The notes beneath the pieces are model-generated. The model ran no database searches, had not been told where the DNA came from, and saw only the letters and a list, made by a program, of their open reading frames with translations. Shown here piece by piece: positions 1 to 64,000 of a stretch of DNA of 64,000 nucleotides. The position numbers were made by a program, and so were the translations under genes. Position 1 is the stretch's first letter. Each line of letters begins with the position of its first letter. The DNA lies in IMG/VR virus record IMGVR_UViG_3300032167_000039. The stretch is one strand, 5' to 3'. The DNA comes from a virus. Lineage: Duplodnaviria; Caudoviricetes.

Positions 1-596
1 TCAATAGTGCCAGGAGTATTTGCAACTCTCATAGCAGTCTTAAGGCTCATGCCACTACGAGGTCTAATCTGAATTTCATAACCAGTAGGAATTGCTACCT
101 TTAAACCAGTTCTAACAAGAACTGTAGTATGAGGTTTAACCGCCATATCTTCAATCGCATAAATATCTGCACCGGCGTCTGTTGTATGTGCATATTCTGG
201 AATAACTGCATCTTCATGAATCTTCTGTACCTTAACATCAATCAATTCTCTTGGAATCTTTACTACAGAGGAAATAAGAGAAGCAGACTGGGAAAGAATA
301 CCAGTAAGAATATCTTTCTTATTTGCAGACAGCGAATCATCTTGATTAATTTCTGCAATCATTTTTTCTACTCCTTCAAGCTCTCCCTGAAGGTTTTCAA
401 CAGGGGATAAAGCAAGTTGAGCAAGAATTTCTTTTCTTACAGCATTTGATCCAAATGCCTTTTCCAATTCTTTCTTCATTTTTGGATAAACTGCATTAAA
501 TTGATTATCGGGTAACTCCAAAAGCTGAATAAGCTGCTCCATTGTCTGATCAGTTCCGGGCATTTCTGTTAGTGTTTTCTTTAAATTACTATTCAT
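1..596 (-). CDS. dut: dUTPase with a ~115 aa N-terminal extension (runs off the window's left edge)
   Basis: Hand translation from ATG at 596: MNSNLKKTLTEMPG...; trimeric dUTPase motifs DAGADIY, QIRPRSG and ANTPGTI. Absent from the ORF track because it is truncated. Confidence 0.9.
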   Translation of the reverse strand, partial: MNSNLKKTLTEMPGTDQTMEQLIQLLELPDNQFNAVYPKMKKELEKAFGSNAVRKEILAQLALSPVENLQGELEGVEKMIAEINQDDSLSANKKDILTGILSQSASLISSVVKIPRELIDVKVQKIHEDAVIPEYAHTTDAGADIYAIEDMAVKPHTTVLVRTGLKVAIPTGYEIQIRPRSGMSLKTAMRVANTPGTI

Positions 597-611
597 TATT
601 TTCTTTCCTCC

Positions 612-1334
612 TTAAACTAATTCCTCTATAATTTCATCAATTACCCCATATTTAAGAGCCTCTTCTGCTGTCATCCATAAGTCATCCTTTCTATGCTTCT
701 TATAATCATCTTCAGTAAGTCTTGTTTGCTTTAAAGTAATTTTGCGAAGCATTGAAAGCTGCTTTTCATAAAACTTAACGCCCTGAAGGAACTTGTGCGC
801 ATCTCCACCGTCTTGTGCGCAACCTTCATGGAACAAATAAGATGAATGAGGATAACCATATCTTTTATGACCAGCACTTCCGATAAAGAATGCTCCACTA
901 TATCCTCTTCCAATTGTAACTGTCCACACAGGCGTCTTTGACATTCTAATAGAGTCAATAATGCTAAAAGTTGCATTAATATCGCCACCGGGGCAATCAA
1001 TATAAATCTTAATTGGCTTTCTTTCTTCTACGGGAACTTCATCTATATCATCTACTGTATTCCAAAATCTAATTGCATCTGAAAAATTAATTGCGGAACC
1101 AGGCTTTATTTCATCACATAAATAAAGTGATCTTTCTAAGAAATTTAGTGTATCTACGCTCTTCTCGGGATCAATTTGACCTTCAGGACTTGTAAGCATT
1201 TCCAATACAGACTCTCCACAACAATCACAATTGTCTGTCATTTCTGTATAAAGTTCTTCTACTGCCTTCTGCACTTCCTCGAGAGGAATCGGCTTTCCAT
1301 TTTCATCTAAAAAATTAATCTGATTCTTTTCCAT
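612..1334 (-). CDS. clpP: ClpP-family protease proteolytic subunit
   Basis: IKIYIDCPGG; GRGYSGA (catalytic Ser); YLFHEG (catalytic His); WMTAEEALKYGVIDEI. Confidence 0.85.
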   Translation of the reverse strand: MEKNQINFLDENGKPIPLEEVQKAVEELYTEMTDNCDCCGESVLEMLTSPEGQIDPEKSVDTLNFLERSLYLCDEIKPGSAINFSDAIRFWNTVDDIDEVPVEERKPIKIYIDCPGGDINATFSIIDSIRMSKTPVWTVTIGRGYSGAFFIGSAGHKRYGYPHSSYLFHEGCAQDGGDAHKFLQGVKFYEKQLSMLRKITLKQTRLTEDDYKKHRKDDLWMTAEEALKYGVIDEIIEELV

Positions 1335-1491
1335 TGTTTGTATCCTCCAATGATGCGATTTCTGCTTTAATATTTGAAATTTCTGTCATTAGCTCACTAA
1401 TATTGGGATTTAAGATAAAGGTTTGTAAGCTTTTTGACAATTCAGTTTCTTTTTCTTTTAATTGAAATTTTAAAGTTTCTAATCTGGTCAT
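1315..1491 (-). CDS. small coiled-coil hypothetical protein (58 aa)
   Basis: MTRLETLKFQLKEKETELSK..., GGAGG RBS, overlaps the clpP start, directly downstream of a sigmaA promoter. Confidence 0.65.
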   Translation of the reverse strand: MTRLETLKFQLKEKETELSKSLQTFILNPNISELMTEISNIKAEIASLEDTNNGKESD

Positions 1492-1527
1492 CTTTATCCC
1501 TCCTTTTATAATATAATTATATCATAA

Positions 1528-2520
1528 TTATTCCCAAAAGTCAATGGAACGAGTGTCCAAAGTTTTGGGATTTTGTTTTAAAAGAAGACGAAGATTTCTT
1601 TTGGATGCAACCATATCCTCAAGTGTCGATATATCTTTATTCTTTCCATAGAATTCATAGAAGGACTCTTGCCCTTTACTTCTACTCCAATTAAAAATAT
1701 CTTCCCATAAACTAAACAAAGGAATAGCTCGTAAATCAATTTGATTAAATTTTTGATGAGTTAATTGTATTCTTTTTCCATCATGCTTAGCAATAAGAAT
1801 CATTTTTACAATTCGTTGAAGATAGACACTTGGATTCATATCAGATTTCCTTGGCTCGGCGGCGAAAAATATATTTTCATAATAATAATTTTCAAAGAAA
1901 TCTTTTGAGAATTCAAAATTTACGATCATTCGTTTATCACTTATATTAGTGATAGGGAAAAATTTTCTAAATGTTTCTTCGTCTTTTGCAATTAAAGGAT
2001 GTAGAAATCTTATATTATAATCTTTCTTATATTCCTTTACAAAATCTTCTGCATTCGGTACATACAAAAAATTTTCGTCTACAACATAAATATAAGTACA
2101 ATTTTTTTTAAAATCTGTGAAATCATTATTCTCTATTCTTATTAAAGAATTTCTTTCTATCTGCTTAAATTGCATTAGATTTTTTATCTTTCCCTCTACC
2201 TCTCCAGTATACGGAAAATAGCTTGGTGGCATGGCGGCAATTTCTGGTTTTAATGGCGTGAATTTGCGATAAAATCCATAGCCATAAATTTGAACTTGCT
2301 CGCCACTTAGAGATAAATGTTTAGGAATGGCTTGTTTAGGATTATTTTTAAAATAAATAATTTGATTATATCTACCTAAGTTATTTTCTTTTGGCATTCC
2401 CATTTTTACAATATCACCACGCTGATAATGGTAATTAAAAACTTTCATAAGTTCGAGGTTCGGAGGTTCAAACTTCTTGCTATGAAGAAGATCTATATCA
2501 TATAAATAAATACTTGCCAT
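1528..2520 (-). CDS. hypothetical protein; N-terminus resembles phage radical-SAM proteins but has no CxxxCxxC
   Basis: YDIDLL...PNLELMKVFNYHYQRGDIV resembles the DVD..PNLALMK.S.YHK..GD.V start of that family; translationally coupled to dnaE. Confidence 0.55.
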   Translation of the reverse strand: MASIYLYDIDLLHSKKFEPPNLELMKVFNYHYQRGDIVKMGMPKENNLGRYNQIIYFKNNPKQAIPKHLSLSGEQVQIYGYGFYRKFTPLKPEIAAMPPSYFPYTGEVEGKIKNLMQFKQIERNSLIRIENNDFTDFKKNCTYIYVVDENFLYVPNAEDFVKEYKKDYNIRFLHPLIAKDEETFRKFFPITNISDKRMIVNFEFSKDFFENYYYENIFFAAEPRKSDMNPSVYLQRIVKMILIAKHDGKRIQLTHQKFNQIDLRAIPLFSLWEDIFNWSRSKGQESFYEFYGKNKDISTLEDMVASKRNLRLLLKQNPKTLDTRSIDFWE

Positions 2521-12844: not shown

Positions 12845-13549
12845 TTAGATTGTATCTAAATTAATTTCTTTTTTCTTTTTCTTTTTCCCAATATAATCAG
12901 AGGGAGTATATTTAATTTCTAAACGGTCTTTTTCGAGTTGTCTCTGAATTGCTTCTCCAATTTCCTTTTGCTGTTGTTCAATTTTAGAATAATACATTCT
13001 CGCCTCGTCATAGATAAAAGGAATAATACCAATTGAACCATTGGATTTCTTTGTTGTATTCTTCTTCACTTCATAAAAATATTTCAAAGTCAGCAATTGA
13101 CCTCTGTAAGTCATACCTTGATTTTTAAACTTCATCATCTGAGTGATATTCCAATCACTTACTGGCTTATCTTCGCTTGACTGTCCGAACAGACGATAAA
13201 TATAATACCATAATGCATCTCTGTCGTCATTCATCTGCTTACTTAAAGCAACATTTTCTTCAGATAAATGATTCTTTACTGTCGTTGAAGAGATTCCAAG
13301 ACGGCGAGCAACCTCACTCATATTTTTACATTGTGCATATTCTTGGTTAATCTTTTCAATAAGCTCTGGAGTTACTTTTACTCGTGTCTTTTTCTTTTCT
13401 TCAACTGGGGCGGCATTAATTACAGTTAGATATTTATTAACACTTGCCACAGAGATGTTAAGTCTTCTAGCTACCTCGGCTTTATTTTTCAATTCTTCAT
13501 ATAAAATTGGAATTTGTGAAATTACTTCACTTGATAATTTTACTCCCAT
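12845..13549 (-). CDS. tandem HTH DNA-binding protein, possible helicase loader or initiator
   Basis: Two repeats, NKAEVARRLNISVASVNKYL and NMSEVARRLGISSTTVKNHL; first gene of the helicase-primase operon. Confidence 0.65.
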   Translation of the reverse strand: MGVKLSSEVISQIPILYEELKNKAEVARRLNISVASVNKYLTVINAAPVEEKKKTRVKVTPELIEKINQEYAQCKNMSEVARRLGISSTTVKNHLSEENVALSKQMNDDRDALWYYIYRLFGQSSEDKPVSDWNITQMMKFKNQGMTYRGQLLTLKYFYEVKKNTTKKSNGSIGIIPFIYDEARMYYSKIEQQQKEIGEAIQRQLEKDRLEIKYTPSDYIGKKKKKKEINLDTI

Positions 13550-13654: not shown

Positions 13655-14902
13655 TTATATGCCTGAAATAATATCATCGAGGAATTGCGCGGCTTGAGCT
13701 GTTTTACTTCTTTCAGTTGTTACTAACTTAACAGTAGCAAACATCTTTGAATAAATTGGAGATTTACGAAGATTGAGCAATAGCTTAAGTCCATTTTTAT
13801 TTCTAAAAAGCTGACTATCAGATTGCTTAATATCTCCATCAAAGAAGATTCTTGTGCCATCTCCACAACGAGCAATAAGTAACTTAATATGATCTTCAGT
13901 AAGATTTTGGCTTTCATTAACGATTACAATAGAATCAGTAAAACTTCTACCTCTAATAAAGCCCATTGGAACAATTTCGAGCTGATCTATTGCCAACATA
14001 TTTTGAACTTGATCAATACCAACCAAATCAATAAGTGGGCCTATTTGTCCTTCAATTTTTGCCAGAAGTTCTCCAGGCAATGCTCCTAAATCCATAGTAT
14101 TTTCAGTAAAAGCATTATTTGGAACATAAACAATTTTCTTAATATGACCTTTTTCTAATTCTTGAATTGCATAGTTATTAAGAATAAAAGACTTTCCTCG
14201 TCCAAAGCCGCCGCCGGCATAAATAATCGTATTTTCTTTATTGGCAAGGGCATCAAATAAACAAGTTTGTTCTGTATTTCTTGGTACAATACAGTTAATC
14301 CATTGATTACAAATCTTTTTTTCTTTTACTGGTATAAGCTTATTATCCTTACAAATAAACTCGCCCATAACAGTATAATTTTCTTCTCCATGCTTATCAA
14401 TATAAGGATTATTAAGATCCTTAACAATTAAATACTGATTTTCATATAGCTCTAAGCCTTCTGGAATCTCTCCTGTTGTAAATACTTTTTCCAAATCTTC
14501 ATTATAAAGATTTTCATCTGTCTTAATATACCAGTATTCTACGCCAGTATAATCATCTTTATTGCTATATCCTTTAGTTTCAATTCCCTCAATAGTTGCA
14601 CGAACTTTGAGATAAACATCATTTGTTACAAGTGTGCCTCCGCTTTCTTTGGCAATTCTAAGAAGTTGGTCATCAACGGGGATGCCCCACTTCTCACAGT
14701 CTGCTGTAAAATTAATCTTCTCTAAATTTCGAGAGATATATACGGCGGCGCGACGAGCATTAAAAGCAATGTCGTTATTAATGTGCTTCTTTAAGCCATC
14801 AAGTTCTTTAAGCACGCTTGTTGCAATAATTAGTTGATTATTTTTATCTTCAACTACTTGAGGATAATCAAGCAGTACATTTGAGTCAATTATAAGTATC
14901 AT
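13655..14902 (-). CDS. phoH: PIN-PhoH fusion protein
   Basis: N-terminal PIN (IIDSNVLL..ELDGLK..DD..TND); PhoH ATPase GGFGRGKS, RGRSF, NESQN, GDIKQSD. Confidence 0.9.
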   Translation of the reverse strand: MILIIDSNVLLDYPQVVEDKNNQLIIATSVLKELDGLKKHINNDIAFNARRAAVYISRNLEKINFTADCEKWGIPVDDQLLRIAKESGGTLVTNDVYLKVRATIEGIETKGYSNKDDYTGVEYWYIKTDENLYNEDLEKVFTTGEIPEGLELYENQYLIVKDLNNPYIDKHGEENYTVMGEFICKDNKLIPVKEKKICNQWINCIVPRNTEQTCLFDALANKENTIIYAGGGFGRGKSFILNNYAIQELEKGHIKKIVYVPNNAFTENTMDLGALPGELLAKIEGQIGPLIDLVGIDQVQNMLAIDQLEIVPMGFIRGRSFTDSIVIVNESQNLTEDHIKLLIARCGDGTRIFFDGDIKQSDSQLFRNKNGLKLLLNLRKSPIYSKMFATVKLVTTERSKTAQAAQFLDDIISGI

Positions 14903-16968: not shown

Positions 16969-17274
16969 TTACTCCTCAACATCAGCGTCGGGATCAAATG
17001 CCATACCTGCCTCTGTCAAGCAGAAATAGCTTACTTCCTTAGTCTTTGTCTTGCCGTCCTCAGTCTCAATTTCAACTGTCTCCTTAAAACGCTCAGCATA
17101 ACCCTTCTTAACAAGACCAGTTACAGAACCAGTTACAGAACCAGCCTTCTCAAAGCCGAGAGCCTCCTGAACTTCCTTAGTTGTAAACTTTACGCCAGCA
17201 CCTGCGCTCTTGAGATACTCAAATACCTTTCTGCTTCCTTCAGTCATCTTTGTCTTTGCCATAATAAAAATCAC
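16969..17274 (-). CDS. small winged-helix DNA-binding protein
   Basis: FTTKEVQEALG...VTGLVKKGYAER wHTH pattern; own sigmaA promoter and terminator. Confidence 0.7.
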   Translation of the reverse strand: MIFIMAKTKMTEGSRKVFEYLKSAGAGVKFTTKEVQEALGFEKAGSVTGSVTGLVKKGYAERFKETVEIETEDGKTKTKEVSYFCLTEAGMAFDPDADVEE

Positions 17275-17807: not shown

Positions 17808-20171
17808 TTAACCTCGAATTAGGTCAACAACATAATCTCCATCATTAAGAGTTATTGCTTTAACACCTGTTGCATCTCGAGAGAGATTTCTCAGTTCAGA
17901 AGTATTAAATTTGATTGTTCCTTTATTACTTATACTTATTATATCACAGTCTTCTGATAAAGTCAAGAAATCAACAATAAAGTCATTGTCTCGAGTACCA
18001 GAAATTTTTCTGCCTTTGATTCCTCTATTACATACAGGAAATTCTTCGAGAGAAGTTTTCTTAGTGAGGCCGCCACGAGATATAGTAACGAGCATATTGT
18101 CCTTTTGACAAATAACATGGGAACTAATTACTTTATCATCAGTACCAAGTTTAATTGCTCTGACGCCTGCAGTAGCTCTACCAATCGGATTAATTTCTTC
18201 TGTTTCAATTATAACAAAATTTCCTTCAGAAGTCAAAATTCCGACTTTTTCATCGTTTACAAAATGAACGCTTACTACTTCATCATCATCCTTAAGATTA
18301 ATTGCTTTTAAAGATTTTCCACGACGATGTTCATATTCTGTAGCCTTTGTTTTCTTTATCATACCATTTTTCGTAATAAAAGTAAAATATTTAACTTGGC
18401 TTTTTCGTGCAATTGAAGTTGCAGTTGTAATATGTTCACCAACTTCAAATTCAAAGAATTGAGCTACATTTACTTTTGAGTTTACAGGAAGATCATCAAT
18501 ACTAAGAGAATACATCTTTCCCTTGTTTGAGAATATAAGTAGAGAGCTGAAATTAGTATCATTAAGTGTCTGAACAATTGCTTCATTGTTTGCTAATTTA
18601 ACTTTTGTACCCTTGCCGCCGCGGCGAGAAGTCATAAGAGTTGTTGATTCTTGAGTGTAGATATTGCCAAGATTTGTGAAATGAATAAGAAGTTCCTTTT
18701 TTTCAATAGGTTCTGCATCATCATCCTCATCTTTAGCAATCAAATCCATTAATCTTGTTCGTCTCTCATCTCCAAATTTCTTCATAACTGCTCTCATTCC
18801 GGCTTCAATTTCTTTATAAAGAAGATCGGTGTTATTAAGAATATTTGTAATATTTTCTGCTTCGCCAAGAATCTTAGTTTTTTCATCTTTTAAAGATTGA
18901 ATTTCAAGACCAATAAGGCGGCTTAGAGGCATTTTAAGAATTGCATCTACCTGCTCTGTATTAAAATCATATTTTTCGATAAGTTTTTTCTTTGCTTCGT
19001 CTTTATTGTTAGACGAGCGAATAATATTAACAACATCGTCAACATTTGCAATTGCGAGTAATAATCCATCAATAATATTGACTCTTGCCATAATTTTGTC
19101 GTAATCATACTGATACATATGACATTTACAAGAAATCTCATGGTCAATATGTGCAAGTAGAGCTTCTTTCCACCCATATACCTTAGGAAAACGCCCATCT
19201 TCAAGCATCACCATATTAATAGTATAACTATCTTCCAGAGAAGTAAGCTTAAAAAGTTGCTTGATTAATTTTGATGGATTGATATTTTTTTCGAGAGATA
19301 CTTTAATATTAGATGTACTCTTTGATAAATCAAGAATCTTGGCGATACCAATTAATTCTCCAGTTTCAACTAAAGTCTTAATTTGTTCCATAATTTTTCC
19401 TACATGAACTCCATAAGGAATTTCTGTAAAATAAATACAATTCTCTTTATCGTCATATTCAGCTGTACTACGTAATCTAACAGAACCTCCACAGCCACTT
19501 TTCATAATTTCCTTTACTTTTGAAGCATTAAGAATTGTTCCACCAGTACAAAAATCTGGTGCGCAGTAGATTTCATCAAAATCAATATCTCTATTCCAAA
19601 GCAATTTAATCATAGCTTCATTTACTTCATTTAAATTAAATTGTGGAATTGAACTTGCAAGTCCCGTTGCGATACCAGTAGTTCCATTACAAATATTATA
19701 AAAACCAAGAGACGGCACTACTGCGGGAAACTGCTCCGTATCATCATAGTTATCAAACCATTCCTCGATACAGTGTTTGTCAATACCATCAAAAAGAAGA
19801 TAGCCAAGCTCGCCTAATCTCATTTCTGTATAACGAGGCGCAGATGCTTTTCCATCTGTCACTCGACCATACTGTCCATCAAAATCTTCAAGAACATATC
19901 TCATACTAAAAGGCTGAGCCATTCTTACCATAAGATCGTAGCAGGCTGCATCGCCATGAACATAAAAATGATCCATGGCGGCAGCAACAGATTTTGTAGA
20001 TTTCTTAAATGGTTTTTTATAAGTAATTTTATCAAGATATTGAGCATAAGTACACTGACGTGCAGCGGGCTTTAAACAGTCTCTTGCATCAATAATAGCT
20101 CTCTCTTGAATGGTCATTCCAGCATAGGTTGAAAAACTATCTTCAACTATATTAAGTAAATTAATATCCAT
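17808..20171 (-). CDS. gyrA: DNA gyrase subunit A
   Basis: RDCLKP, HGD, catalytic APRYTE, GyrA-box-like SRRGGKG, beta-pinwheel CTD repeats. Confidence 0.93.
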   Translation of the reverse strand: MDINLLNIVEDSFSTYAGMTIQERAIIDARDCLKPAARQCTYAQYLDKITYKKPFKKSTKSVAAAMDHFYVHGDAACYDLMVRMAQPFSMRYVLEDFDGQYGRVTDGKASAPRYTEMRLGELGYLLFDGIDKHCIEEWFDNYDDTEQFPAVVPSLGFYNICNGTTGIATGLASSIPQFNLNEVNEAMIKLLWNRDIDFDEIYCAPDFCTGGTILNASKVKEIMKSGCGGSVRLRSTAEYDDKENCIYFTEIPYGVHVGKIMEQIKTLVETGELIGIAKILDLSKSTSNIKVSLEKNINPSKLIKQLFKLTSLEDSYTINMVMLEDGRFPKVYGWKEALLAHIDHEISCKCHMYQYDYDKIMARVNIIDGLLLAIANVDDVVNIIRSSNNKDEAKKKLIEKYDFNTEQVDAILKMPLSRLIGLEIQSLKDEKTKILGEAENITNILNNTDLLYKEIEAGMRAVMKKFGDERRTRLMDLIAKDEDDDAEPIEKKELLIHFTNLGNIYTQESTTLMTSRRGGKGTKVKLANNEAIVQTLNDTNFSSLLIFSNKGKMYSLSIDDLPVNSKVNVAQFFEFEVGEHITTATSIARKSQVKYFTFITKNGMIKKTKATEYEHRRGKSLKAINLKDDDEVVSVHFVNDEKVGILTSEGNFVIIETEEINPIGRATAGVRAIKLGTDDKVISSHVICQKDNMLVTISRGGLTKKTSLEEFPVCNRGIKGRKISGTRDNDFIVDFLTLSEDCDIISISNKGTIKFNTSELRNLSRDATGVKAITLNDGDYVVDLIRG

Positions 20172-26100: not shown

Positions 26101-26778
26101 ATCCCTTACGCAAGGTTGATTAACAGCATAAATAAAACGCTGGATATTCTGTTTAGCATAATCTTCAAATTGATTCATTCCAAGATATGCTGAATCGCAA
26201 TCTTGTTTCCAGAAATAATACATATAAGGAATAAGATTGGGGAGGCCTACTGCACCAGAGCTTCTATTGCTTGCAAAATTAATAAATTCTTTAACAAAGT
26301 CAACAAATGTTGTTAAATGTTTTGGCGGCTTATTGTTGAAAGTGTCTTCCAAGAAATAAAGTCCTTTTTCAGCCAAATCCTTTAAATCGTATGCAAAACA
26401 ATAATGTTTAAAAGTAGCTGTATCTGCATCGTGCATATAAAGTTGTCCCATCCACTCTCTACGAAGCCAATCATTCGCCGCTTTAAAACCATATGCTTTC
26501 TGATATTCATAATAAATCTTATTGAAAGCTAAAAGTTTACGGTGTGGCTTGGGCATTTCAGTTAAAAGTGTTACTATATCTTTTCTTCGAACATTACTAT
26601 TACCATCAATACTTGAGTTTGCCACAACAGGTTCATAAATAAAATTATCTACAAAATCTGTAAGGGATAGTTGTCTATCATCAAAGCCATTAAGTCTTGC
26701 CATATCGGTTCCAAATTCAGATTGAAGCCTATTATACTGTATGGTAAAATTTTTGTTTGATCTAATATTAACTTGCAT
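26101..26778 (-). CDS. nrdD: anaerobic ribonucleotide reductase, exon 1
   Basis: YMHD, YCFAY, PPKHL, SNRSSGAVG, NQP; no obvious ATP-cone. Confidence 0.9.
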
Positions 26779-27909: not shown

Positions 27910-28726
27910 TTAATTCATCTCGAGTAGGAGGTCTTTTCTTTTCACATTTTGGAGGAATAAAAACAGGGTAAGGAATTCCAATATAACCACAGTTTGGCGG
28001 CGTATAACAAGGAACTTTTTCATCTTCGCAATGAAATGTTGCTATATGATAATAAGTTCCGTCAGATAAAGGTACTCCATCTGGATATTTAGATAAAATC
28101 CTTTTCATTCCTTTATAATAATCCAATCCTTTTTCCCATTCATAAAAATCGCACTCTAAGGCGGCGGAAAAGTAAGTTGTATTAATAATATCTTTTTCTT
28201 CTTCTTGAGTTTTTTTATCTTCTTGATCTTCTTTAAAACTTAATAAACCAAAATATAAATCATCAAGACTTGTTTCAGAAAGTTGATACTCTAAATTATA
28301 ACAAATTTCTCTTCCTTTTGAGATATCAAACCCTTGAGTTTCTTCATTAAATACTGCTCCAAATAAAACATAATATCCTTCAAAAATATAAATAAACTGA
28401 ATGTTTTTTTCATCTGTATATTTAGCAGCATAAAAAGCTCCTTCCTTTTCATTTGTACTTGCAACTTTTTCTGGAAAATATTCTTGGTGTTCTATAATAA
28501 TTTGTCCTTTAAATTCTGGAACCGGGACTGGTAATGGACATAATTCATAATTTTCACAAGGAGAACCAAGAATTTCTTCGATTAAAGTTAATGTTTTTAA
28601 ATAATCAATTTTTATCTCACATACGGGGAAATGTCTACAAGTAAAACAACGAGGGTAAAGTTGCGTGTGTCTAGGCGGCGGCATTTCCTCACTAATTGGA
28701 GTTAGTATTTTCTTATAATCAATCAT
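27899..28726 (-). CDS. hypothetical protein, Cys/Pro-rich termini
   Basis: CFTCRHFPVC; GGGGTG RBS; follows a phage-type promoter motif. Confidence 0.7.
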   Translation of the reverse strand: MIDYKKILTPISEEMPPPRHTQLYPRCFTCRHFPVCEIKIDYLKTLTLIEEILGSPCENYELCPLPVPVPEFKGQIIIEHQEYFPEKVASTNEKEGAFYAAKYTDEKNIQFIYIFEGYYVLFGAVFNEETQGFDISKGREICYNLEYQLSETSLDDLYFGLLSFKEDQEDKKTQEEEKDIINTTYFSAALECDFYEWEKGLDYYKGMKRILSKYPDGVPLSDGTYYHIATFHCEDEKVPCYTPPNCGYIGIPYPVFIPPKCEKKRPPTRDELNEF

Positions 28727-36416: not shown

Positions 36417-39400
36417 ATGGGATTTTTTGATCCATTTGGTGGAAATCAAGGCGGCTCTGGTGGAGGTAGTGTAGATATTGATGTTTCATTAACTCAGTCT
36501 GGCAAAGCTGCCGACGCAAAAGTAGTTGGAGATAAGATTAAAAATATTGAGGAAAATGGGACTGCGAAGATTAATGATGTTAAGATAGTTGGAGAGCTTG
36601 ATTCTGTTGATGATTTAAGTATTCCTGGAAAAATTCTGGAAGAAGGCAGTGAAATAGAAATAGGAACAACAAATGAGATAATAGGAAAAAACGCAGAAAT
36701 TTTTAATGATTATGAAGCAAATATTGCAATAGGGGAATATAGTCATGTAGAAGGCACAAAAAATCGTGCTCATGGAGCATATAGCCATGTTGAAGGATAT
36801 GGAAATAAAGCTTCAGGAATTGCAGCACATGTTGAAGGAGATTCATCAATTAATCCACCTCATACAATTAATGCCACAGTGAGTCCCATTCCTGCTGAGA
36901 GAGCTTCTGGACAAGCAAGCCACGCAGAAGGCACAGCAACCGCAACAGGTCTTTTATCTCATGCAGAAGGCGGCTGGGCGACCGCATCTGGAATATGCTC
37001 TCATGCCGAAGGTGGCTATACATATGCAACAAATTATGGAGCGCACGCTGAAGGAGGGCCATATTCTGATAAATTTAATTTTAGAGAATGGACTCGAGCA
37101 GATGGTATTAGTTCACACGCAGAAGGCGGTTTTACTTGGGCATATGGATTAAATTCTCATAGTGAAGGACAGAAAACAACCGCATATGGTGTATCTGCCC
37201 ATGCTGAAGGTTTGTCTTCTAATCCTATATTTGATAATATTACTGATATTGCCGATCTAACAAAAGATGAAATAATCGAGGAGTGGACGGCTAAAAGATT
37301 TTCTCTTGCTTATGACACAGGAGCACATACGGAAGGATATAATACTCTTGCTTTGGGAACTTTTTCTCATGCAGAGGGTTTTGAGACTAAAGCGAAGGCG
37401 ACCGGTTCACATGCAGAAGGAAGTGGTACATCGGCTTTAGCAGACTATACTCATGCAGAGGGAATAAATTCTTCTGCTGAGGGCACAGGAGATCATGCCG
37501 AAGGATTTGCATCTAAAGCAAAAGGAGGCTTTTCTCATGCAGAAGGTTGGCAAACTGAAGCTTCTGGTCCGCAAGGCTGTCATGCAGAAGGTAATGGTTC
37601 TATAGCCTCTGCAACAGGCGCGCATGCCGAAGGTCTTAATACAATTGCATCGGGATCAGGTTCTCATGCAGAGGGATTAAGTGCAGGTAATGAAAAGAAT
37701 CAAGCAACAATGGCTGGAGCCCATGCAGAGGGATTAGGTACAAAAGCTTTAGGTAATGGATCTCATTCTGAGGGTATGCATTCTACTAGTACATATAATA
37801 ATCAAACCACATATATTTACACTGTCGCTTCGGGTGAAGGTAGCCATGCGGAAGGTATAGCAACTTTAGCCTCAGGAAGAAGCTCACATTCTGAAGGCAT
37901 GAGGACTACCGCATCCGGGCAAAGTTCTCACGCAGAGGGCGGCGGCACACTCGCTGCTGGTTATGAATCACACGTAGAGAATAGCGGTAATAGCGCTTAT
38001 GGATCATCCTCTCATGCCGAAGGTGCGGGTAATATTGTAAGTGGAACTAATTCTCATGTTGAAGGATCTGGCAATAAAATTCGCTCATCTTACTCTGGAG
38101 CAGAAGATTCAACTATAGATAATTATTGTGGTCATTCAACCCATGTAGAGGGTGCAGGAAATACAGCATATGGAGCATATCATTCTCATATTGAAGGAAC
38201 TGGAAATACTCTAGGCAAAAAAGATAGTGGATTAAGCACGTATGGTGCACATATTGAAGGTACTGGTAATACTGTTTTGGCAAAAGCCGGTCATGCAGAA
38301 GGTGGAGGAAATTTAATTGATCTTAATGCAGTCCACGGACATGTTGAAGGTTATCATACCACAGCCTCTAAAGACAGCGCTCATGCAGAAGGTAAAAATA
38401 CTACAGCTTCCGGGGAGAGTTCTCATGCAGAGGGGTTAAGCACAATATCTGAAGGATTTTATTCACACACAGAAGGAGGCGGAACACAAGCTCTTGGACC
38501 GGGATGCCATGCAGAAGGAGGAGGCTCAATAGCGGGTATAAAACCAACTGCCAATGTACCTGCGCCACTTCAACCTAATTATGCGCATGCAGAAGGAGAT
38601 AATACTATAGCTTCCGGAGGAAGTTCTCATGCAGAAGGTGGTCGGACAAAAGCGCTTGGACAAACGTCTCATGCTGAGGGCGAAGGCAGTACAGCAAGCG
38701 GGTCAGTATCTCATGCCGAAGGCTATGGTGGTACAGCAAGCGGAATGGCATCTCATGCTGAAGGTATGAGAACCACTGCGTCGGGACAAGGTTCTCATGC
38801 AGAGGGTTTTTCCGATGTTAGGCTTGACACATTTACAGAAGACTACAGCACAAAAGAAGCGATAGAAGAGTTATGGAAAAAACAAGTTGCGGAAAAAAAG
38901 TTTTCCTGTGCTTTTGGTGATGAATCCCATGTTGAGGGTGGTTGTAATTTAGCTACTGGAGTTGGTGCACATGCAGAAGGAGGCTGGACACTTGCTTCTG
39001 GGAAAAAATCTCATGCAGAAGGTTCTGGAACACAAGCAATAGGAGAAGAATCACACGCTGAAGGAGCAGGTAGTATAGCACGTGGGAATCATTCTCATGC
39101 TGAAGGAGCTGGGACGACTGCGAGTGCACAAGATTCTCACGCAGAGGGCGGTGGCACAATAGCAAGTGGACAAAATTCTCATGCCGAAGGAGCAGGAACG
39201 GAAGCCTCAGGAAGCGGATCTCATGCAGAAGGACAAGGCAGTAGAGCCACGGATGGGGCTGCGCACGCAGAGGGTGCAGGCGCAATCGCTTCAGGCTGGG
39301 CATCTCATGCAGAAGGTTCTGGAACTATTGCGAGTGGAACTAATTCACATGCTGAAGGGGGAGGCAGCAGAGCGAATGGAAAAGAGTCCCATGCCGAAGG

Positions 39401-42567: not shown

Positions 42568-42610
42568 AAATTATGGCGGCGAGTAATACTGCCCGCCGCC
42601 AAATTTAAAG

Positions 42611-49801: not shown

Positions 49802-49863
49802 ATATTGCCGCCTCATCATTAAAAATCTTGATGTGGCGGCACGATATAAAGGAGGTAGATTAC

Positions 49864-53058: not shown

Positions 53059-55245
53059 ATGTATATGACTTTAAATACTCGGCAAAGGAAAGTTGTTGAA
53101 GCAACTGAGAACAAAATTTTATGCCTTGCGGCGGCGGGCAGCGGAAAATGTATTCCAAATTCAATAAAAATTCCAACACCAAAAGGATGGAAAAGAGTAG
53201 ATGAAGTTAAAGTAGGAGATTATCTTTTTGATAAAGAAGGTAAGCCAACAAAAGTTGTGGGAGTATATCCTCAAGGAAAAAAAGAAGTTTATGAAATTAC
53301 TTTTGGAGATGGGAGAAAAGCTAAATGCAGTATTGATCATATTTGGAGCGTAAATCGAAAAACATGGAGAGATAGTCAACAATTTAAGAATTATACATTA
53401 AAAGAAATACTGGAGGATAAATGGCAAATTATAGATAAACGAGGACATAAATTACATAATTTTTCAATTCCTTGTGCCAAAGCAATTAATTATGAAAATG
53501 ATAAAAAATTAAAAGTAAACCCTTATTTATTTGGAATCTTTTTAGGAGATGGATGTTGTCGAGATCAAGCCTTAACACTCTCATCCAATGATAAAGAACT
53601 TGTAATAAAAATCCAAAAAATACTTAATAGTCCACAAGTTTACAAAAATCAATCTAATTATAGTTGGACATTTTATAAAGAGGATGGGCATAGATTCTCT
53701 ACAAAAGAGGTTTTAGGAGAATATGAAAAATTTATTTGCTGCTATTGTTATGAAAAATCAATTCCCGATGATTTTAAATACTCTTCTATAAAAGACAGGT
53801 ATGAATTAATTCAAGGACTTATGGATACAGATGGTTCTATTATTAGAGCGGATGGTAGATATCATGTAAGTTTTACAACTACAAGCTCCAAATTAAGAGA
53901 TGATTTTATTGAAGTGATGGGATCTTTAGGATATGTGTGTACTTACAGAACAGATAAGAGAAGCGATAAATATACTCATGGAGAAGCATATGAAGTAAAA
54001 ATAAATATTCCTAATGCGGAAAAGTATAAACTATTCTCTCTTTCAAGAAAAAAAGAAATTGCTTTGGAATGCAAAGATAAAAAACAAAATCGAAAATATG
54101 ATAGAACAACAATAATTAATATAGAAAAACTTAATTATAAAGAGGAAATGACTTGTTTTTATGTTGATAATGAGGAACATTTATTCCTTATGAATGATTT
54201 TATTGTTACTCATAATACAACTGTTTTAACAGAAAGAGTTCGTTATTTAATCGAAAAGCGCAATGTTCCTCCAGAAGAAATCTGTGCAATAAGTTTCACC
54301 AACATGGCGGCAGATGAAATGAAAAAGCGATTAGGCAATATTGCTATTGGAGCTTTTATTGGCACAATTCATAGCCTTGCCAATAATACTTGTATTGCAA
54401 ATGGAATTAGTACTGAAAAATATATTGCTGATACTGAATTTGATATGATTCTTCGAAAGGCATTAACAATTCCAAAGGGAAGATATCCTAAATTTACCCA
54501 TCTCCTCATTGATGAGTTTCAGGATACTGGTCAGCTTGAGTATAGTTTTATTGAAAGAATACCTACTAAAAATTTCTTTGTAGTTGCGGATGAGCGCCAA
54601 GCAATATATGGGTTTAAGGGCGCATCAGATATTTATGTAAGAAATCTATATCACGATGCTTTTTGTAAGGTATATTACCTAAATCAAAATTATCGTTGTG
54701 CGCCGAACATCATTTCCTATGCAGATAGTCTTATTGCTTCAATGGATAAACTAAGTCCAAAAACCGAAGCTATCAAAACAAAAGATGGCTATGTTAGTGA
54801 ACATTCTACATTTGTAGATGCTCTTGATGAACTTGAATGGTCTCAGGATTGGGGTAATTGGTTTGTTCTTACAAGAACAAATAATGAACTTGCAACTGCA
54901 ATGACTAAGCTTGAAGAGAGGAATATCCCTTATATTTCTTTTAAAAAGGGAGACCTTGATTTAATTGAAATGGAAGCTCTCCTTAAAGATAATCGAGTGA
55001 AGGTTTTAACAATCCATACTGCTAAGGGTTTGGAAAATAAGAATGTTATTGTTACTGGAGCAAGACTTTATAACGAAGAGGAAAGAAAAATTGCATATGT
55101 TGCCGCAACAAGAGCAGAACAGTCTCTTTATTGGTGTCCTTCTATCTGCCGCCGTGGCAAGGTTGGAAGACCAGATAACAGAGATGATGCAGATGCAGGA
55201 AAGGTATTTGAAAAAGCCGCCAAGAATATGATTTCTTTTGGGTGA
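53059..55245 (+). CDS. UvrD/PcrA-like SF1 helicase containing an intein
   Basis: AAAGSGK|T, SFTNMAA, GTIHS, IDEFQD, QAIYGF, NYRC, TIHTAKGLE, YVAATRA. Confidence 0.92.
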   Translation: MYMTLNTRQRKVVEATENKILCLAAAGSGKCIPNSIKIPTPKGWKRVDEVKVGDYLFDKEGKPTKVVGVYPQGKKEVYEITFGDGRKAKCSIDHIWSVNRKTWRDSQQFKNYTLKEILEDKWQIIDKRGHKLHNFSIPCAKAINYENDKKLKVNPYLFGIFLGDGCCRDQALTLSSNDKELVIKIQKILNSPQVYKNQSNYSWTFYKEDGHRFSTKEVLGEYEKFICCYCYEKSIPDDFKYSSIKDRYELIQGLMDTDGSIIRADGRYHVSFTTTSSKLRDDFIEVMGSLGYVCTYRTDKRSDKYTHGEAYEVKINIPNAEKYKLFSLSRKKEIALECKDKKQNRKYDRTTIINIEKLNYKEEMTCFYVDNEEHLFLMNDFIVTHNTTVLTERVRYLIEKRNVPPEEICAISFTNMAADEMKKRLGNIAIGAFIGTIHSLANNTCIANGISTEKYIADTEFDMILRKALTIPKGRYPKFTHLLIDEFQDTGQLEYSFIERIPTKNFFVVADERQAIYGFKGASDIYVRNLYHDAFCKVYYLNQNYRCAPNIISYADSLIASMDKLSPKTEAIKTKDGYVSEHSTFVDALDELEWSQDWGNWFVLTRTNNELATAMTKLEERNIPYISFKKGDLDLIEMEALLKDNRVKVLTIHTAKGLENKNVIVTGARLYNEEERKIAYVAATRAEQSLYWCPSICRRGKVGRPDNRDDADAGKVFEKAAKNMISFG
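53149..54216 (+). mobile_element. intein with LAGLIDADG endonuclease (356 aa) inside Walker A
   Basis: Begins with Cys after GSGK, ends IVTHN before Thr; block B CSIDHIW; LAGLIDADG motifs FGIFLGDG and IQGLMDTDG. Confidence 0.93.
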
Positions 55246-58208: not shown

Positions 58209-58742
58209 ATGTTAGTTGCAGCACAATTATATCAACAAGAACTCCAGCAAAAACTTCGAGCAACTTGGTATGATCTTAAATACCAATATTTCTGGCAAGG
58301 TGGTTGTGAAGACATTGATATTCCAAATAATAATTATTGGAAGAAGCAATTCGCCTTTCTTGATAATGAAGGAAATGTAACTGGATATTTTAGTTACAAT
58401 TACTGTGCAGAGGCAAATTCAATTAATAATTTTGGATTAATTAGTTTCATTGACTATAATCCTCGCTTCATTCGATCTGTAATTAAGCATCTTGAAAATA
58501 TACTGTCTCAAGGACATATAAATCGAATTGAATTTTTTGCCTATGAAGACGGACCTGCAAACAAAGGCTATAAAAAATTGGTTAAGAAGTTTGGCGGCAA
58601 ACAGGTTGGAAAACTAACAAAAAATTCAAGATTGCTTGATGGTAAGCTTCATGACACTATTATCTATGAGATCCTTAGAGAAGATTATCTAAAAAAGAAT
58701 TGGCCTAAGTGTGACGGCTGGCGGCGGGAGGCAAGTGAATGA
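58209..58742 (+). CDS. GNAT (RimJ/RimL-like) acetyltransferase
   Basis: NRIEF....PA..Y..L..KFGG..VG....DGKLHD..IYEILREDY. Confidence 0.65.
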   Translation: MLVAAQLYQQELQQKLRATWYDLKYQYFWQGGCEDIDIPNNNYWKKQFAFLDNEGNVTGYFSYNYCAEANSINNFGLISFIDYNPRFIRSVIKHLENILSQGHINRIEFFAYEDGPANKGYKKLVKKFGGKQVGKLTKNSRLLDGKLHDTIIYEILREDYLKKNWPKCDGWRREASE

Positions 58743-59776
58743 CATATATCTGTATTATTTTAGGAGTATTATTACTCACTGCCATAGGTTATATAGTATA
58801 TCTACTTAAACCGCCGAGTAAGCAAGGACTTTATGAAGAAGAATTTCAGAGGGCGGCGCACGAGATTGAAGAAAGATTGAGAAAAGAAAGAGAAGAACAA
58901 GTCAATTTTCAATCAGAACAAATTCGTCAAGAGATTCATAATATGGAAATAATGCTTGAAGAAAAGGCAAAAACATATAAGCAAACTCAAAATGAATGGT
59001 TACAGCAAGTTCAAAGTCTTAAAGAGTCATATGAGAGACAGCGAGAAGAGATTACTTCTTCTATTAAGGAACACACTTTAAAAGAACAGCAAGTAATGAC
59101 TGAAAAGCTTTTACAAAAGCAGCAAGAGATTGAGAAAGAAGTTCGTATATTAGATGATAAGTACAATCTTACTGTTATAGACTATGAGAATAAAATGTTT
59201 GATATTCGCTGTAAATTTGAGACGGAAGAGCAAGACTTAAATTCTCAAATCGTCCAGAAGAGAAATGAAATTAACGCTCTTATTGAACAATTTAAGAAAG
59301 ATGAAGAAGCTCGCAAAGAAGCAGATTTCTATCGTATTCCAATAACTCCTGCCGCCCAAAATGACATTAATAAATTGAAAGGCGTGGCGGCGCAATTAAA
59401 TAATCCAGCAACATTATATAAGTTGATTTGGAAGGAGTACTATGAGAATGGATTTAATGCTATGATTGGTAGAGTTTTGGGGGAAGATAAAGATTCAATT
59501 GGAATTTATAAGATTACAAACATCAAAAATCAAATGTGTTATATCGGACAAACAAAAGCGGGTTTTAAAAATCGTTGGAGAACTCATGCCAAACGTGCTG
59601 TAAAAGCAGAAGATGGAACTTCTAATCGTCTTTATCAAGACATGTGGGAGAATGGATTGGAAAATTATACCTTCCAAATTATTGAGAAATGTACGACTGA
59701 TAAATTAACTGAACGAGAAAAATTCTATATTGACTTCTTCAATTCGAAGGAATGGGGCTTTAATTCTAAAACTTAA
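58739..59776 (+). CDS. membrane-anchored coiled-coil protein with C-terminal GIY-YIG nuclease
   Basis: TM at residues ~3-23; ~170-aa coiled coil; GIYKITN..CYIGQT..RW..H..EREKFYI..GFN. Confidence 0.85.
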   Translation: MTYICIILGVLLLTAIGYIVYLLKPPSKQGLYEEEFQRAAHEIEERLRKEREEQVNFQSEQIRQEIHNMEIMLEEKAKTYKQTQNEWLQQVQSLKESYERQREEITSSIKEHTLKEQQVMTEKLLQKQQEIEKEVRILDDKYNLTVIDYENKMFDIRCKFETEEQDLNSQIVQKRNEINALIEQFKKDEEARKEADFYRIPITPAAQNDINKLKGVAAQLNNPATLYKLIWKEYYENGFNAMIGRVLGEDKDSIGIYKITNIKNQMCYIGQTKAGFKNRWRTHAKRAVKAEDGTSNRLYQDMWENGLENYTFQIIEKCTTDKLTEREKFYIDFFNSKEWGFNSKT

Positions 59777-59788: not shown

Positions 59789-59816
59789 TTGATGCTGCGG
59801 CGCGCCGCGGCATCAA
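59789..59816 (+). other. GC-rich hairpin (terminator or origin element)
   Basis: TTGATGCTGCGGC-GC-GCCGCGGCATCAA, then a T-tract and a second hairpin at ~59828-59858. Confidence 0.7.
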
Positions 59817-59869
59817 GCGGTTTTTGGGCTACCTTTTTGCCGTTTCAAAAACGGTAGCAATAACTTAAA

Positions 59870-60733: not shown

Positions 60734-60818
60734 TATGGGATTGCTTATTTTACTATATTGACTTTTTCTATGGTTTATTATATAATTATAGTATAAAATT
60801 GAAAGGAGATTTAAGAAA

Positions 60819-61758: not shown

Positions 61759-61843
61759 TTTTAATAAATTCTACCTCTTGACTTTTTTGAATTTCTATGA
61801 TATAATAATTATAGAATAAAAAAAGAAAAGAGGTAATTTTATT

Positions 61844-61933
61844 ATGGCAATTATTGGAATGGCGTTGATTTTCGGCGTTATTTATGTTGGTTCACAAATT
61901 TTGTTTGATATTTTTTTTGGAGGTAAGAAGTAA
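61844..61933 (+). CDS. 29-aa single-TM peptide
   Basis: MAIIGMALIFGVIYVGSQILFDIFFGGKK; AGAGGT RBS; TAATG coupling to the next gene. Confidence 0.55.
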   Translation: MAIIGMALIFGVIYVGSQILFDIFFGGKK

Positions 61934-62457
61934 TGAAAGTTTTAGTTTGTGTAGATTGTCAAGTTGATTTTACTACCGGAGCTCTTGCAAATCCAGTTGC
62001 AGAAGAGAGAATTCCTGCAATTAAGGAGAGAGTTGCCGCCGCGCGAGAAAATCATGAAATGGTAATCTTTACTCAGGACACACATATGGAAAATTATATG
62101 GATACTCTTGAGGGCGAGAAGCTTCCTGTTGAACATTGTATTTACCAGACAGAAGGCTGGGAGATTGTTGAGGAACTAAGAGATGAGGCAGCACTTTGCG
62201 TCCTGAAGCCTACTTTTGGCTCTTTCGATTTGATTGATAGGGTTGTTGCATTTCGTAATGCATTTAATGAAGATGTGGAGATTGAGCTATGTGGTTTTGT
62301 GACAAGTATTTGTGTTTTAGCAAATGCTGTTTTACTTAGAGCCGCGATGCCAGATGCTAAAATTATTGTTAATTCTAAATTGTGTGCGGATGTATCTAAA
62401 GAAAAGCACGAAGCTGCTTTAGAAGTTTTAAGATCTCAGCAGATTGATGTTATATGA
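61933..62457 (+). CDS. pncA: nicotinamidase/isochorismatase-family cysteine hydrolase
   Basis: VDCQVDF, TQDTH, EHC...GWEI, KPTFGS, GFVTSICV. Confidence 0.8.
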   Translation: MKVLVCVDCQVDFTTGALANPVAEERIPAIKERVAAARENHEMVIFTQDTHMENYMDTLEGEKLPVEHCIYQTEGWEIVEELRDEAALCVLKPTFGSFDLIDRVVAFRNAFNEDVEIELCGFVTSICVLANAVLLRAAMPDAKIIVNSKLCADVSKEKHEAALEVLRSQQIDVI

Positions 62458-63161
62458 GTAAATTAATTGATCTAACTGGACAAAGATTTGGAGATTTAGT
62501 TGTTCTTGAAAGGGACATTAATAAACCAAAAGGTCGTGCATATTGGATATGTCAGTGTGATTGTGGGAAAATTATTAGTACTCTTGGAACTCATTTACGA
62601 CAAGGTAATTCAAAAAGTTGTGGTTGTAAAAGGAATTTTAAGGATTTAACTGGACAAAAATTTGGAAAATTAATTGTAATGGAATTATCAAAAAATAGAG
62701 ATAAAGATAATTGTCATAAATGGATTTGCAAGTGCGAATGTGGAGCTATAAAAGAGATTAGTCAACATGATTTGAGAAGAGGTGTGTCTTCTTGTGGGTG
62801 TGTAAGATCAAAAGGAGAGGAAAGAATTTCTCAACTATTAACAGAAATGAATATTCTTTTTAAAAGAGAATATTATATTAATGGATTTAAATTAACAACT
62901 GGAGGAGTACCTCATTTTGATTTCGCACTCTTTAATGATAAAAATGACTTGATTTGTTTTATTGAGTATCATGGAGAACAGCATTATCAGGCACGAGGAA
63001 ATATATTTACAGAAGAAAAAGTACAAATTATAAAAAAGAGGGATAAAGAAAAAGAGGAATACTGTATTTTAAATAATGTTCCTCTAAAAATAATTCCATA
63101 TACAGATTTTAAACAATTAAATTGTGAATATTTAATGAGAATTTTAGCTGATGTAATTTGA
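62454..63161 (+). CDS. free-standing homing-type endonuclease, paralog of 29964..30686
   Basis: DLTGQRFG..CQCDCG..SCGC twice; SKGE, FDFAL, IEYHGEQH. Confidence 0.82.
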   Translation: MSKLIDLTGQRFGDLVVLERDINKPKGRAYWICQCDCGKIISTLGTHLRQGNSKSCGCKRNFKDLTGQKFGKLIVMELSKNRDKDNCHKWICKCECGAIKEISQHDLRRGVSSCGCVRSKGEERISQLLTEMNILFKREYYINGFKLTTGGVPHFDFALFNDKNDLICFIEYHGEQHYQARGNIFTEEKVQIIKKRDKEKEEYCILNNVPLKIIPYTDFKQLNCEYLMRILADVI

Positions 63162-63174
63162 AAGGAGGAGTATT

Positions 63175-63411
63175 ATGTTTTTGAAGTTTTCAAATGGACA
63201 GTATATTCGTTCAAGATATATTGAATCTTTTAATTTTTATGAACGAGGAGATATTGATAAGAAGACGAAGCATATTCATATTAAAACTTATAGCGGCACA
63301 ATGTTTCGTTTTTCTTATTGTGGGAAAAATGATAATTTAAATGAAGTCGATTACGAAAGTGATAAAGCAATGCTTGAAGATCTTGCTGAAGATAGAATGA
63401 AGGAGGATTAA
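63175..63411 (+). CDS. hypothetical protein
   Basis: AGGAGG RBS, 78 aa. Confidence 0.6.
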   Translation: MFLKFSNGQYIRSRYIESFNFYERGDIDKKTKHIHIKTYSGTMFRFSYCGKNDNLNEVDYESDKAMLEDLAEDRMKED

Positions 63412-63412
63412 T

Positions 63413-63661
63413 ATGAGAAATAAGATTAACTTGGTAACTATGACTGATATTACTGAATTTGTAAGAATTTGCGAAAGTATTGAAGGACGAGTAGAACTCT
63501 TTTGTGGCAAGAAGGGGTATCGTGTAAATGCTCGTTCTATGCTTGGCTGTCTTGCCGCTCTTGAATTTGATGAAATGTGGGTAGATTCTGATAAGGATAT
63601 CTATGACCAGATTGAAAAGTTTATTGTAATAGGCGAAGATGGCAACTATATCCATGAATAA
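63413..63661 (+). CDS. HPr-like protein lacking His15
   Basis: EFV.ICESIEG.VEL...YRVNARSMLG (Ser46 motif). Confidence 0.75.
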   Translation: MRNKINLVTMTDITEFVRICESIEGRVELFCGKKGYRVNARSMLGCLAALEFDEMWVDSDKDIYDQIEKFIVIGEDGNYIHE

Positions 63662-63708
63662 GAATTTTGGCGGCGAGCAATCGTCGCCTAATCGTGTTGG
63701 AGGTATTT

Positions 63709-64000
63709 ATGCATAAAGTATCTTTGGAGGAAGTGAGACATCTCTGTAGAGAAGTTATTACTGGAATGAGAATTAAAGAAAAGGATGAGAGATATAGTGA
63801 TAGCCTTAATTTTTATCTTACCAACGATTTTTTCTTTGAAGAATGCTGGAATCTTGATATGACTCTTTCCGCACTGATTTTATTAAGACTTATCTATTTT
63901 AGAGATAATCATTCTGGCGCACCAAGTTGTCTTTTTGAATATGATGAATTTGATCATATTAAAGAAGAAGATGGCTTTAAAAAATGGAATGAGATTCTTG
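63709..64000 (+). CDS. hypothetical phage protein (partial)
   Basis: MHKVSLEEV...ECWNLDMTLS...; GGAGG RBS; runs off the window. Confidence 0.6.
   Translation, partial: MHKVSLEEVRHLCREVITGMRIKEKDERYSDSLNFYLTNDFFFEECWNLDMTLSALILLRLIYFRDNHSGAPSCLFEYDEFDHIKEEDGFKKWNEIL

Follow-up and report, generated by a model that had tools for sequence, protein, structure and literature searches.

Over-representation of a GC-only word throughout a 64-kb stretch of AT-rich phage DNA

Phages are expected to shed short GC-rich sites of the restriction type, and the question raised by the virus record IMGVR_UViG_3300032167_000039 (Duplodnaviria; Caudoviricetes) is why one clade does the reverse, paying for it in rare codons. 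The stretch analyzed here (64 kb, 32.5% G+C; hereafter the window) is part of a larger phage genome and is annotated in part. It holds 130 copies of the pentamer GCSGC (81 GCGGC and 49 GCCGC on the plus strand), which is 8.9 times the zero-order expectation of 14.5 and amounts to a density of 2,030 per Mb; a first-order Markov model predicts 16.6.

Size and unit of the GCSGC excess

GCSGC is the top-ranking 5-mer of the window under first-order Markov, maximal-order Markov, and synonymous-shuffle models alike. The initial annotation, made from the sequence alone, had claimed more than 60 sites in the first 35 kb against roughly five expected by chance. We count 69 there, and the large excess stands; the zero-order expectation for 35 kb is ∼8. 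The density persists in the right arm, as had also been stated, with 61 sites in the remainder. All of the tandem examples that were pointed out (at 5803, 14207, 18615, 23482, 24125, 28675, and 53128) are present, and frame- and strand-wise counts agree with the observation that sites lie in both orientations and in all frames.

Genes hold 119 GCSGC sites. Within-gene shuffling of synonymous codons yields 41 ± 5-6 (z 13-17), permutation of codons yields 27, and shuffling under the added constraint that each codon keep its following base yields 60. Codon-preserving shuffles had been named at the outset as the comparison that might account for the count. None of the three kinds does (27-60 against 119), so the excess is not due to codon usage, and it exceeds what chance and amino-acid content provide. 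The word is written ∼3-9 times beyond protein requirement, in genes and in spacers. The codon pairs forced by it are otherwise rare ones, as proposed: 64 of the 93 Ala-Ala pairs begin with GCC or GCG (GCC GCC 19 times, GCG GCG 16 times), and Gly-Gly is written GGC GGC 24 times.

The enriched unit is longer than the pentamer. GCSGC sites with an A or T flank occur at ∼1× expectation, and only the GGCGGC and GCGGCG contexts are enriched, by 6-12×: G-GCGGC-A is found 27 times against 4.6 expected, G-GCGGC-G 27 times against 2.2, and C-GCGGC-G eight times against 0.8. This strong dependence on the flanks means that the unit is a hexamer or heptamer of the (GGC)2 type with GCSGC as its core, best described in the window's lineage as GGCGGCR (54 occurrences, 6.8 expected), and not the bare restriction-type palindrome that the initial annotation had in mind.

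GGCGGCR is in excess on the coding strand (29 against 5.0, 5.8×) and on the template strand (25 against 1.9, 13×), and in four relatives both orientations are enriched 4-11×. Enrichment on both strands excludes an effect on mRNA or translation and excludes strong polarity. All three reading frames contribute (for example, GCGGC in frame 1, 32 against 9; GCCGC in frame 2, 8 against 1.3), and in the noncoding DNA of five genomes of the clade GCSGC is the top GC-only 5-mer, with 145 occurrences against 14.7. The process acts on DNA, neither on codons nor on mRNA.

The most depleted 5-mer under synonymous shuffling is GCWGC (38 against 74, z -7.7). Its deficit is confined to frame 0, that is, to Ala-Ala pairs (GCA GCN, 13 against 39), and since Ala-Ala is written either GCW-GCN or GCS-GCN, the deficit is the flip side of the excess. 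Avoidance of GCWGC as a restriction site is rejected as the primary cause, the deficit being limited to that frame and smaller (∼35 sites) than the GCSGC excess (∼78).

GC-only runs of at least 8 bp are also frequent (48 against 9.5). Runs that contain GCSGC are enriched at every length (6 bp, 30 against 9.5; 7 bp, 16 against 5.4; 8 bp, 15 against 3.6; at least 9 bp, 25 against 1.8), whereas those without it are not (6 bp, 23 against 24.2; 7 bp, 6 against 7.3; 8 bp, 4 against 2.6), and we therefore reject selection for generic GC clamps. CpG is depleted overall (rho 0.68), yet the GC-only runs, which make up 2.4% of the genome, hold 29% of the CpGs. Triplet slippage is rejected too, as gains of the word are point substitutions rather than 3-nt indels. 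Identical-codon pairs are not favored in general (GCA GCA, 7 against ∼20 expected). Separately from GCSGC, the runs AAAAAA/TTTTTT fall far below their frequency in synonymous shuffles (169 against 270, z -7.4), and likewise in all relatives and in SPbeta.

Turnover of the word and its distribution among relatives

Two relatives allow the history of individual sites to be followed: L107, a 63-kb metagenome scaffold 86% identical to the window, and G001, a complete 167-kb genome with terminal repeats that is syntenic with the window at ∼79% nucleotide identity. At four-fold degenerate positions in conserved amino-acid families, a G or C at the wobble base is retained more often inside GCSGC than outside it, in 65% against 42% of cases relative to L107 (P = 0.006) and in 49% against 21% relative to G001 (P = 2e-7). 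Within the word such bases are lost about half as fast as elsewhere.

When differences between the window and L107 are polarized with G001 as outgroup, 17 gains of the word and two losses fall on the window branch, and four gains and three losses on the L107 branch. Among four-fold sites that were ancestrally A or T, word-completing changes from A/T to G/C (W->S) took place at 6/12, against 59/571 where no word was possible, ∼5 times the rate of other W->S changes (odds ratio 8.7, P = 8e-4). Purely synonymous changes account for 12 of the 16 genic gains (GGT/GGA->GGC, GCW->GCS, CGT->CGC, AGA->CGC). Gains arise at every position of the word, transversions (T->G, A->C) among them, and individual sites turn over. 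A directional, word-specific force acts on resident phage DNA at present; we take it to be still operating because synonymous word-completing changes are overfixed and word wobbles are retained on the window's branch. The small numbers and the saturated outgroup make the magnitudes of the polarized effects rough. Across gene classes, the GCSGC excess is 3.9-fold in core genes and 2.0-fold in window-unique genes and homing nucleases, and the homing nucleases as a group carry 0.8 GCSGC per kb against 2.2 per kb in core genes.

All of the uncultured relatives examined are enriched in GCSGC (z 6-24), with flanks that differ by lineage: GCGGCA and GCCGCC in G003 and G005c15, GCGGCC and CGCGC in G004 and G012, and GCGC/CGCGC in G008 and G011. 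Three cultured phages that share the replication module lack the excess (SPbeta, 12 against 15 expected; Enterococcus phage VRE9_1, 12 against 8; Lactococcus phage 949, none in 50 kb). In 12 contigs taken from two Firmicute metagenome bins, each bin including related phage contigs, GCSGC occurs 0-4 times per 20 kb, the link between bin and host being unproven; the density is ∼2 per kb in phage against ∼0.07 per kb in these contigs, a contrast of ∼30-fold. The best reading of this contrast, which consists of the contigs of two bins and three cultured phages, is that the bias is intrinsic to the phage lineage. A third bin with a related phage contig is labeled Methanobrevibacter.

Several other short words are scarce in this group. 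The window shows restriction-type avoidance of GATC (101 against 172), ACGT (24 against 78), and CTAG (21 against 88). GATC is absent from G002, G003, and G005c15 (0 against 176-233 expected); GCGC is almost zero in two relatives (1 against 44 expected in G005c15), and GTAC and TGCA are strongly depleted too.

Full-text literature searches returned no report of a GCSGC excess in phages. New findings are that the unit is of the (GGC)2 type, that the excess itself accounts for the GCWGC deficit, that generic GC clamps do not explain the word, that cultured relatives and bin contigs differ from the clade, and that polarized gains show the word still being added.

Placement in the window and neighboring genes

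The sites, most of them of the (GGC)2 type (GGCGGC, GCGGCG, and their complements), are dispersed over the window, with some longer tracts and hairpins among them:

1..64000, window-wide dispersed word: 130 GCSGC in 110 blocks, mean gap 567 bp
14207..14218, 12-bp GC-only tract of overlapping GCSGC units within the PhoH/PIN gene
18615..18626, 12-bp GC-only tract with three overlapping GCSGC within a topoisomerase II subunit gene
28674..28682, (GGC)3 tract within the gene at 27899-28726, whose product has no assigned function
37937..37946, GGGCGGCGGC tract within the gene for a 1191-aa repeat protein
53128..53139, 12-bp tract in (GCG/GGC) phase at the beginning of the UvrD-like helicase gene, which contains an intein
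42574..42606, plus strand, intergenic hairpin with arms GGCGGCG and complement (-19.8 kcal/mol, z -4.2)
49806..49841, plus strand, intergenic hairpin downstream of the amidase gene, its arms GCCGCC / GGCGGC (-20.6 kcal/mol, z -5.9)
59789..59816, plus strand, perfect intergenic hairpin on a 15-bp GC-only palindrome, followed by a U-run (-25.0 kcal/mol, z -3.7)
63669..63688, plus strand, short hairpin, one arm GGCGGCG, where the last open reading frame (ORF) begins (-15.4 kcal/mol, z -2.3)

Spacing of the blocks is Poisson-like (CV 0.94), and the sole preferred distance is the 3-nt overlap; we find no periodicity, regular spacing, arrays, or excess of inverted pairs across the window's blocks. 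Two wobble bases of the tract at 14207..14218 (GGT and GGA, both to GGC) are derived on the window branch. About eight of the 11 sites beyond called genes lie within hairpin stems. The claim that GCSGC-type arms build intergenic hairpins holds for all four, which fold as described and supply terminator-like stems; three fold far better than shuffled sequence, and the one at 63669..63688 is the weakest. From its predicted fold, the hairpin at 59789..59816 looks like an intrinsic terminator, and that at 42574..42606, which follows a gene ending at 42567, likewise resembles a terminator.

Under the standard code the window is tiled by long ORFs, on the minus strand to ∼35.8 kb and on the plus strand beyond. 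Its genes encode a Pol III alpha-type DNA polymerase, RecJ, primase, DnaB helicase, and a tandem-HTH protein, alongside PhoH/PIN, a Sak4-like AAA_24 protein, a YorF-like protein, and two topoisomerase II subunits. Further genes are those for thioredoxin reductase, NrdG, NrdD (split by a GIY-YIG gene), 5'-nucleotidase, ThyX, and dUTPase; also present are ligase, ADP-ribosylglycohydrolase, amidase, the intein-bearing UvrD-like helicase, and ClpP. Polymerase identity to SPbeta and VRE9_1 is 38-39%. DNA searches give no close cultured relative, and protein identity to cultured phages is at most ∼39%; many uncultured relatives exist. The best explanation is that the window belongs to a large phage, uncultured and with an SPbeta/949-type replication module, that infects anaerobic Firmicutes of the gut or rumen. 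The top matches of the thioredoxin-reductase gene are other phage contigs, and hence indicate no host.

HNH/GIY-YIG homing-type nuclease genes are unusually many, at least six in 64 kb. One of them (GIY-YIG, 25067-25933) lies between the two pieces of NrdD on the minus strand (N-terminal 26092-26778, C-terminal 23692-24939); this arrangement (23692-26778) looks like an intron or a split gene, and L107 has the identical layout. Others are:

6523-7656, 27493-27909, 29964-30686, 58739-59776, and 62454-63161, homing-type nuclease genes (HNH or GIY-YIG)

The UvrD/PcrA-like helicase (53059-55245, plus strand) carries an intein with a LAGLIDADG domain at approximately residues 69-386, and PHROGs call the P-loop part flanking this intein a terminase large subunit. 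The 1191-aa protein gene (36417-39992, plus strand) has ∼12 repeats of phrog_25468, a PHROG domain without known function, and no homolog of its product is found among nine related genomes; it sits in an island of 41-44% G+C where the GCSGC excess is just ∼2-fold. The ADP-ribosylglycohydrolase (PF03747; 32553-33332, minus strand), shared only by G001 at 95% identity, may be an anti-defense enzyme that reverses ADP-ribosylation. The polymerase gene of G001 has insertions of 1.1 and 1.9 kb relative to the window. In the distant relatives G004 (L066-L070), G012, and G002, ORF coverage under code 11 is at most 62% (56-62%); reading TAG as sense lifts that of G004 to 88%, and the Dam-like gene of G004 has two in-frame TAG codons. 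These relatives probably use a TAG-recoded genetic code.

Candidate enzymes, rival explanations, and a possible label for phage DNA

Methyltransferases were sought in the relatives with Pfam families PF00145, PF01555, PF02086, and PF02384. The C5 family (PF00145) has no match in G001-G004, and N6_Mtase (PF02384) none in G001-G004 or G012. For the N4/N6 family (PF01555) there is no match in G001-G004, G008, G009, G010, or G012 and one in G011. Matches to the Dam-like D12 family (PF02086) are confined to G004 and G012, both without GATC depletion. Neither Vsr (PF03852) nor TGT/DpdA (PF01702) has a match in G001-G004 or G012, and a motif for 7-deazaguanine modification (DpdA/TGT) is set aside on the latter result. 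The complete syntenic relative G001 thus matches none of the four methyltransferase families, nor Vsr, nor TGT.

As genes that might confer the trait, topoisomerase II, NrdD, RecJ, DnaB, primase, the Sak4-like protein, and the UvrD-like helicase are rejected, being present in 949 and/or VRE9_1. In a tblastn profile of the genes, only clade-wide proteins of undefined role remain as trait-linked candidates. Two proteins are candidate readers of the word:

12845..13549, minus strand, tandem-HTH protein of the replication module, conserved in 9/9 uncultured relatives examined
16969..17274, minus strand, 101-aa protein, called a wHTH protein in the initial annotation, conserved in 8/9 uncultured relatives

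The 101-aa protein has no Pfam or PHROG match, and an exact-protein look-up was empty.

The closest described phenomenon is the alternate highly iterated palindrome (HIP) GCsGC of Cyanothece PCC 7822, which belongs to the class that includes HIP1, GCGATCGC (Elhai 2015, Life 5:921, PMC4390886). HIPs reach densities of 1,000-2,000 per Mb, and every HIP genome surveyed had a cognate methyltransferase (PMC4390886). The phage word is like the Cyanothece HIP in its core (GCSGC, 100% G+C), in a density of the same order (∼2,000 per Mb), and in its dispersal through coding and noncoding DNA, kept by a directional process rather than by positional conservation and with its function unexplained. It is unlike that HIP in being carried by a phage rather than a bacterial chromosome, the bins with related phage contigs being without the word. 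It departs from the class as a whole in that G001 has no match to methyltransferase Pfams (the window itself being a partial genome) and in that its unit is an asymmetric (GGC)2 word, the bare palindrome standing at ∼1×. Of the properties that characterize HIPs, over-representation, density, and dispersal are found here; a palindromic unit and, in G001, a methyltransferase are not.

That the word is a by-product of coding, through amino acids, codon usage, codon-pair bias, avoidance of GCWGC, or GC clamps and terminator stems, strikes us as scarcely credible. GCWGC is indeed the most depleted 5-mer, Ala-Ala and Gly-Gly pairs provide most sites, and hairpin stems hold most of those outside called genes; yet all three kinds of shuffle fall short of the count, the GCWGC deficit is too small and restricted to one frame, template-strand enrichment matches that of the coding strand, GC-only runs without GCSGC are at expectation, and cultured AT-rich relatives have no excess. 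A methylation-linked origin of the HIP1 type, as the initial annotation had suggested, would involve a GCSGC or GCNGC methyltransferase that together with mismatch repair ratchets the site upward, as in Cyanothece PCC 7822. The shared core word and density speak for it (PMC4390886), as does the enrichment of GGCC and GCGC in some distant relatives. We nevertheless think it improbable: G001 has no methyltransferase or Vsr match and Dam-like genes are limited to G004 and G012, a palindrome-reading enzyme should ignore the A/T flanks that abolish enrichment, and the bin contigs without excess make a host methyltransferase with repair unlikely. SPbeta and phi3T carry multispecific C5 methyltransferases targeting GGCC and GCNGC, the latter a class that contains GCSGC, and the related polymerases (38-39%) tie the window to phages of this type, which lends methylation some support; SPbeta itself is without a GCSGC excess and PF00145 without a match in G001-G004. 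The Chi sites of Firmicute AddAB are AGCGG in Bacillus subtilis and GAAGCGG in Staphylococcus aureus. The phage word is similarly short, GC-rich, and frequent, and it could mark self DNA for a translocating enzyme, attenuating a host nuclease (of the AddAB/RecBCD type, or an NTP-dependent restriction enzyme) or serving as a decoy. The greater number of GCGGC than GCCGC on the plus strand, in both arms, would fit such counter-defense, as would the variation of the word by lineage alongside lineage-specific avoidance (GATC, GCGC, GTAC, and TGCA at or near zero in some relatives). But Chi is polar and enriched in the host, whereas the phage word is strand-symmetric, exceeding expectation on coding and template strands (5.8× and 13×); in G001 its orientation tracks codon composition, with no two-ended or replication-polar pattern and no strand polarity beyond what that composition predicts, and a host's own Chi should abound in the host, while the bin contigs, whose link to the host is unproven, are nearly without the word. 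The Chi-like signal raised initially is accordingly a slim prospect.

The initial annotation held that enrichment suggests selection. The polarized gains and the wobble retention uphold a directional force; selection as its cause is the less certain part, as a drive by biased repair or gene conversion predicts the same pattern and is nearly as likely. Sequence-directed repair or gene conversion by the phage would resolve heteroduplex mismatches from replication or recombination toward the word, which would accumulate neutrally in a HIP-like ratchet (Elhai 2015) working without methylation. Poisson-like spacing, turnover of sites, and an excess in every frame and in spacers all accord with such a selfish drive, as do the weaker excess in recently acquired genes and homing endonucleases, the origin of gains from one-off neighbors at any position, and the differing identity of the word among lineages; the phage also has a recombination and repair set (RecJ, the Sak4-like AAA_24 protein, the UvrD-like helicase, ligase, and the HNH/GIY-YIG nucleases). 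We consider this drive possible, if on the unlikely side, since the searches for a candidate enzyme came up empty (Vsr and the C5, N4/N6, and D12 methyltransferases have no match in G001), cultured phages sharing the replication and recombination genes show no excess, and the transversions among the gains mean that T:G-specific repair alone is insufficient. In Escherichia coli, very short patch (VSP) repair by Dcm/Vsr leaves an excess of CCWGG and a deficit of its T:G-derived neighbors. The phage site resembles this in gaining at the expense of a one-off neighbor (GCWGC), but the neighbor deficit is found in the Ala-Ala frame only, other T/A neighbors are undepleted, gains include transversions, and there is no match to Vsr (G001-G004, G012) or to PF00145 (G001-G004); VSP-type repair is therefore rejected.

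We favor, with confidence a little short of even, a phage-intrinsic fixation bias that stems from weak selection for the density of the word as a recognition element in double-stranded DNA (dsDNA). A directional, sequence-specific bias writes and retains (GGC)2-type words wherever coding permits, and between genes; weak selection would act on their density, and the word would be a strand-indifferent dsDNA element read by a phage-encoded binding or translocating factor, and at ∼2 sites per kb it would set phage DNA apart from the bin contigs. Selection for recognition is favored because of the ∼30-fold contrast between phage and bins and because the force targets a particular 6-7-bp sequence and not base composition.

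Several observations weigh against this preference. Poisson-like spacing fits an effect of density and fits a neutral drive equally well. Lineages enrich different flanks and words (GCGGCA, GCGGCC, CGCGC), which one conserved reader could match only by varying in step, and what backs the HTH candidates is their conservation. The polarized counts are small and depend on a single close relative and on an outgroup that is saturated. The host is known solely through metagenome bins with related phage contigs, and as these may be mis-binned, absence of the word from the host is weak evidence. Finally, the rare codons are not compensated by any tRNA-Gly or tRNA-Ala: the window has no tRNAs, and G001 has 18, clustered from L035:17225 to L036:6047, all of which serve A/T-rich codon families to the exclusion of Gly and Ala. 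Compensation for rare codons by tRNAs is accordingly rejected.

A further step, which we regard as doubtful, is that the clade labels its own DNA with a methylation-independent GC-only word that is read to tell phage from host DNA. Such a label could aim replication, packaging, or the degradation of host DNA, and would still be being written in the window's lineage. If the recognition label is real, it would represent phage self-discrimination without base modification, and would offer a sequence signature for detection in metagenomes. If instead the drive is, this clade would provide a natural viral example of biased fixation directed by a motif, with relevance to the origin of cyanobacterial HIP because the word accumulates here without a methyltransferase. 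As the gains polarized on the window branch show, little divergence is needed to measure the process, and population data from metagenomes could therefore separate selection from drive.

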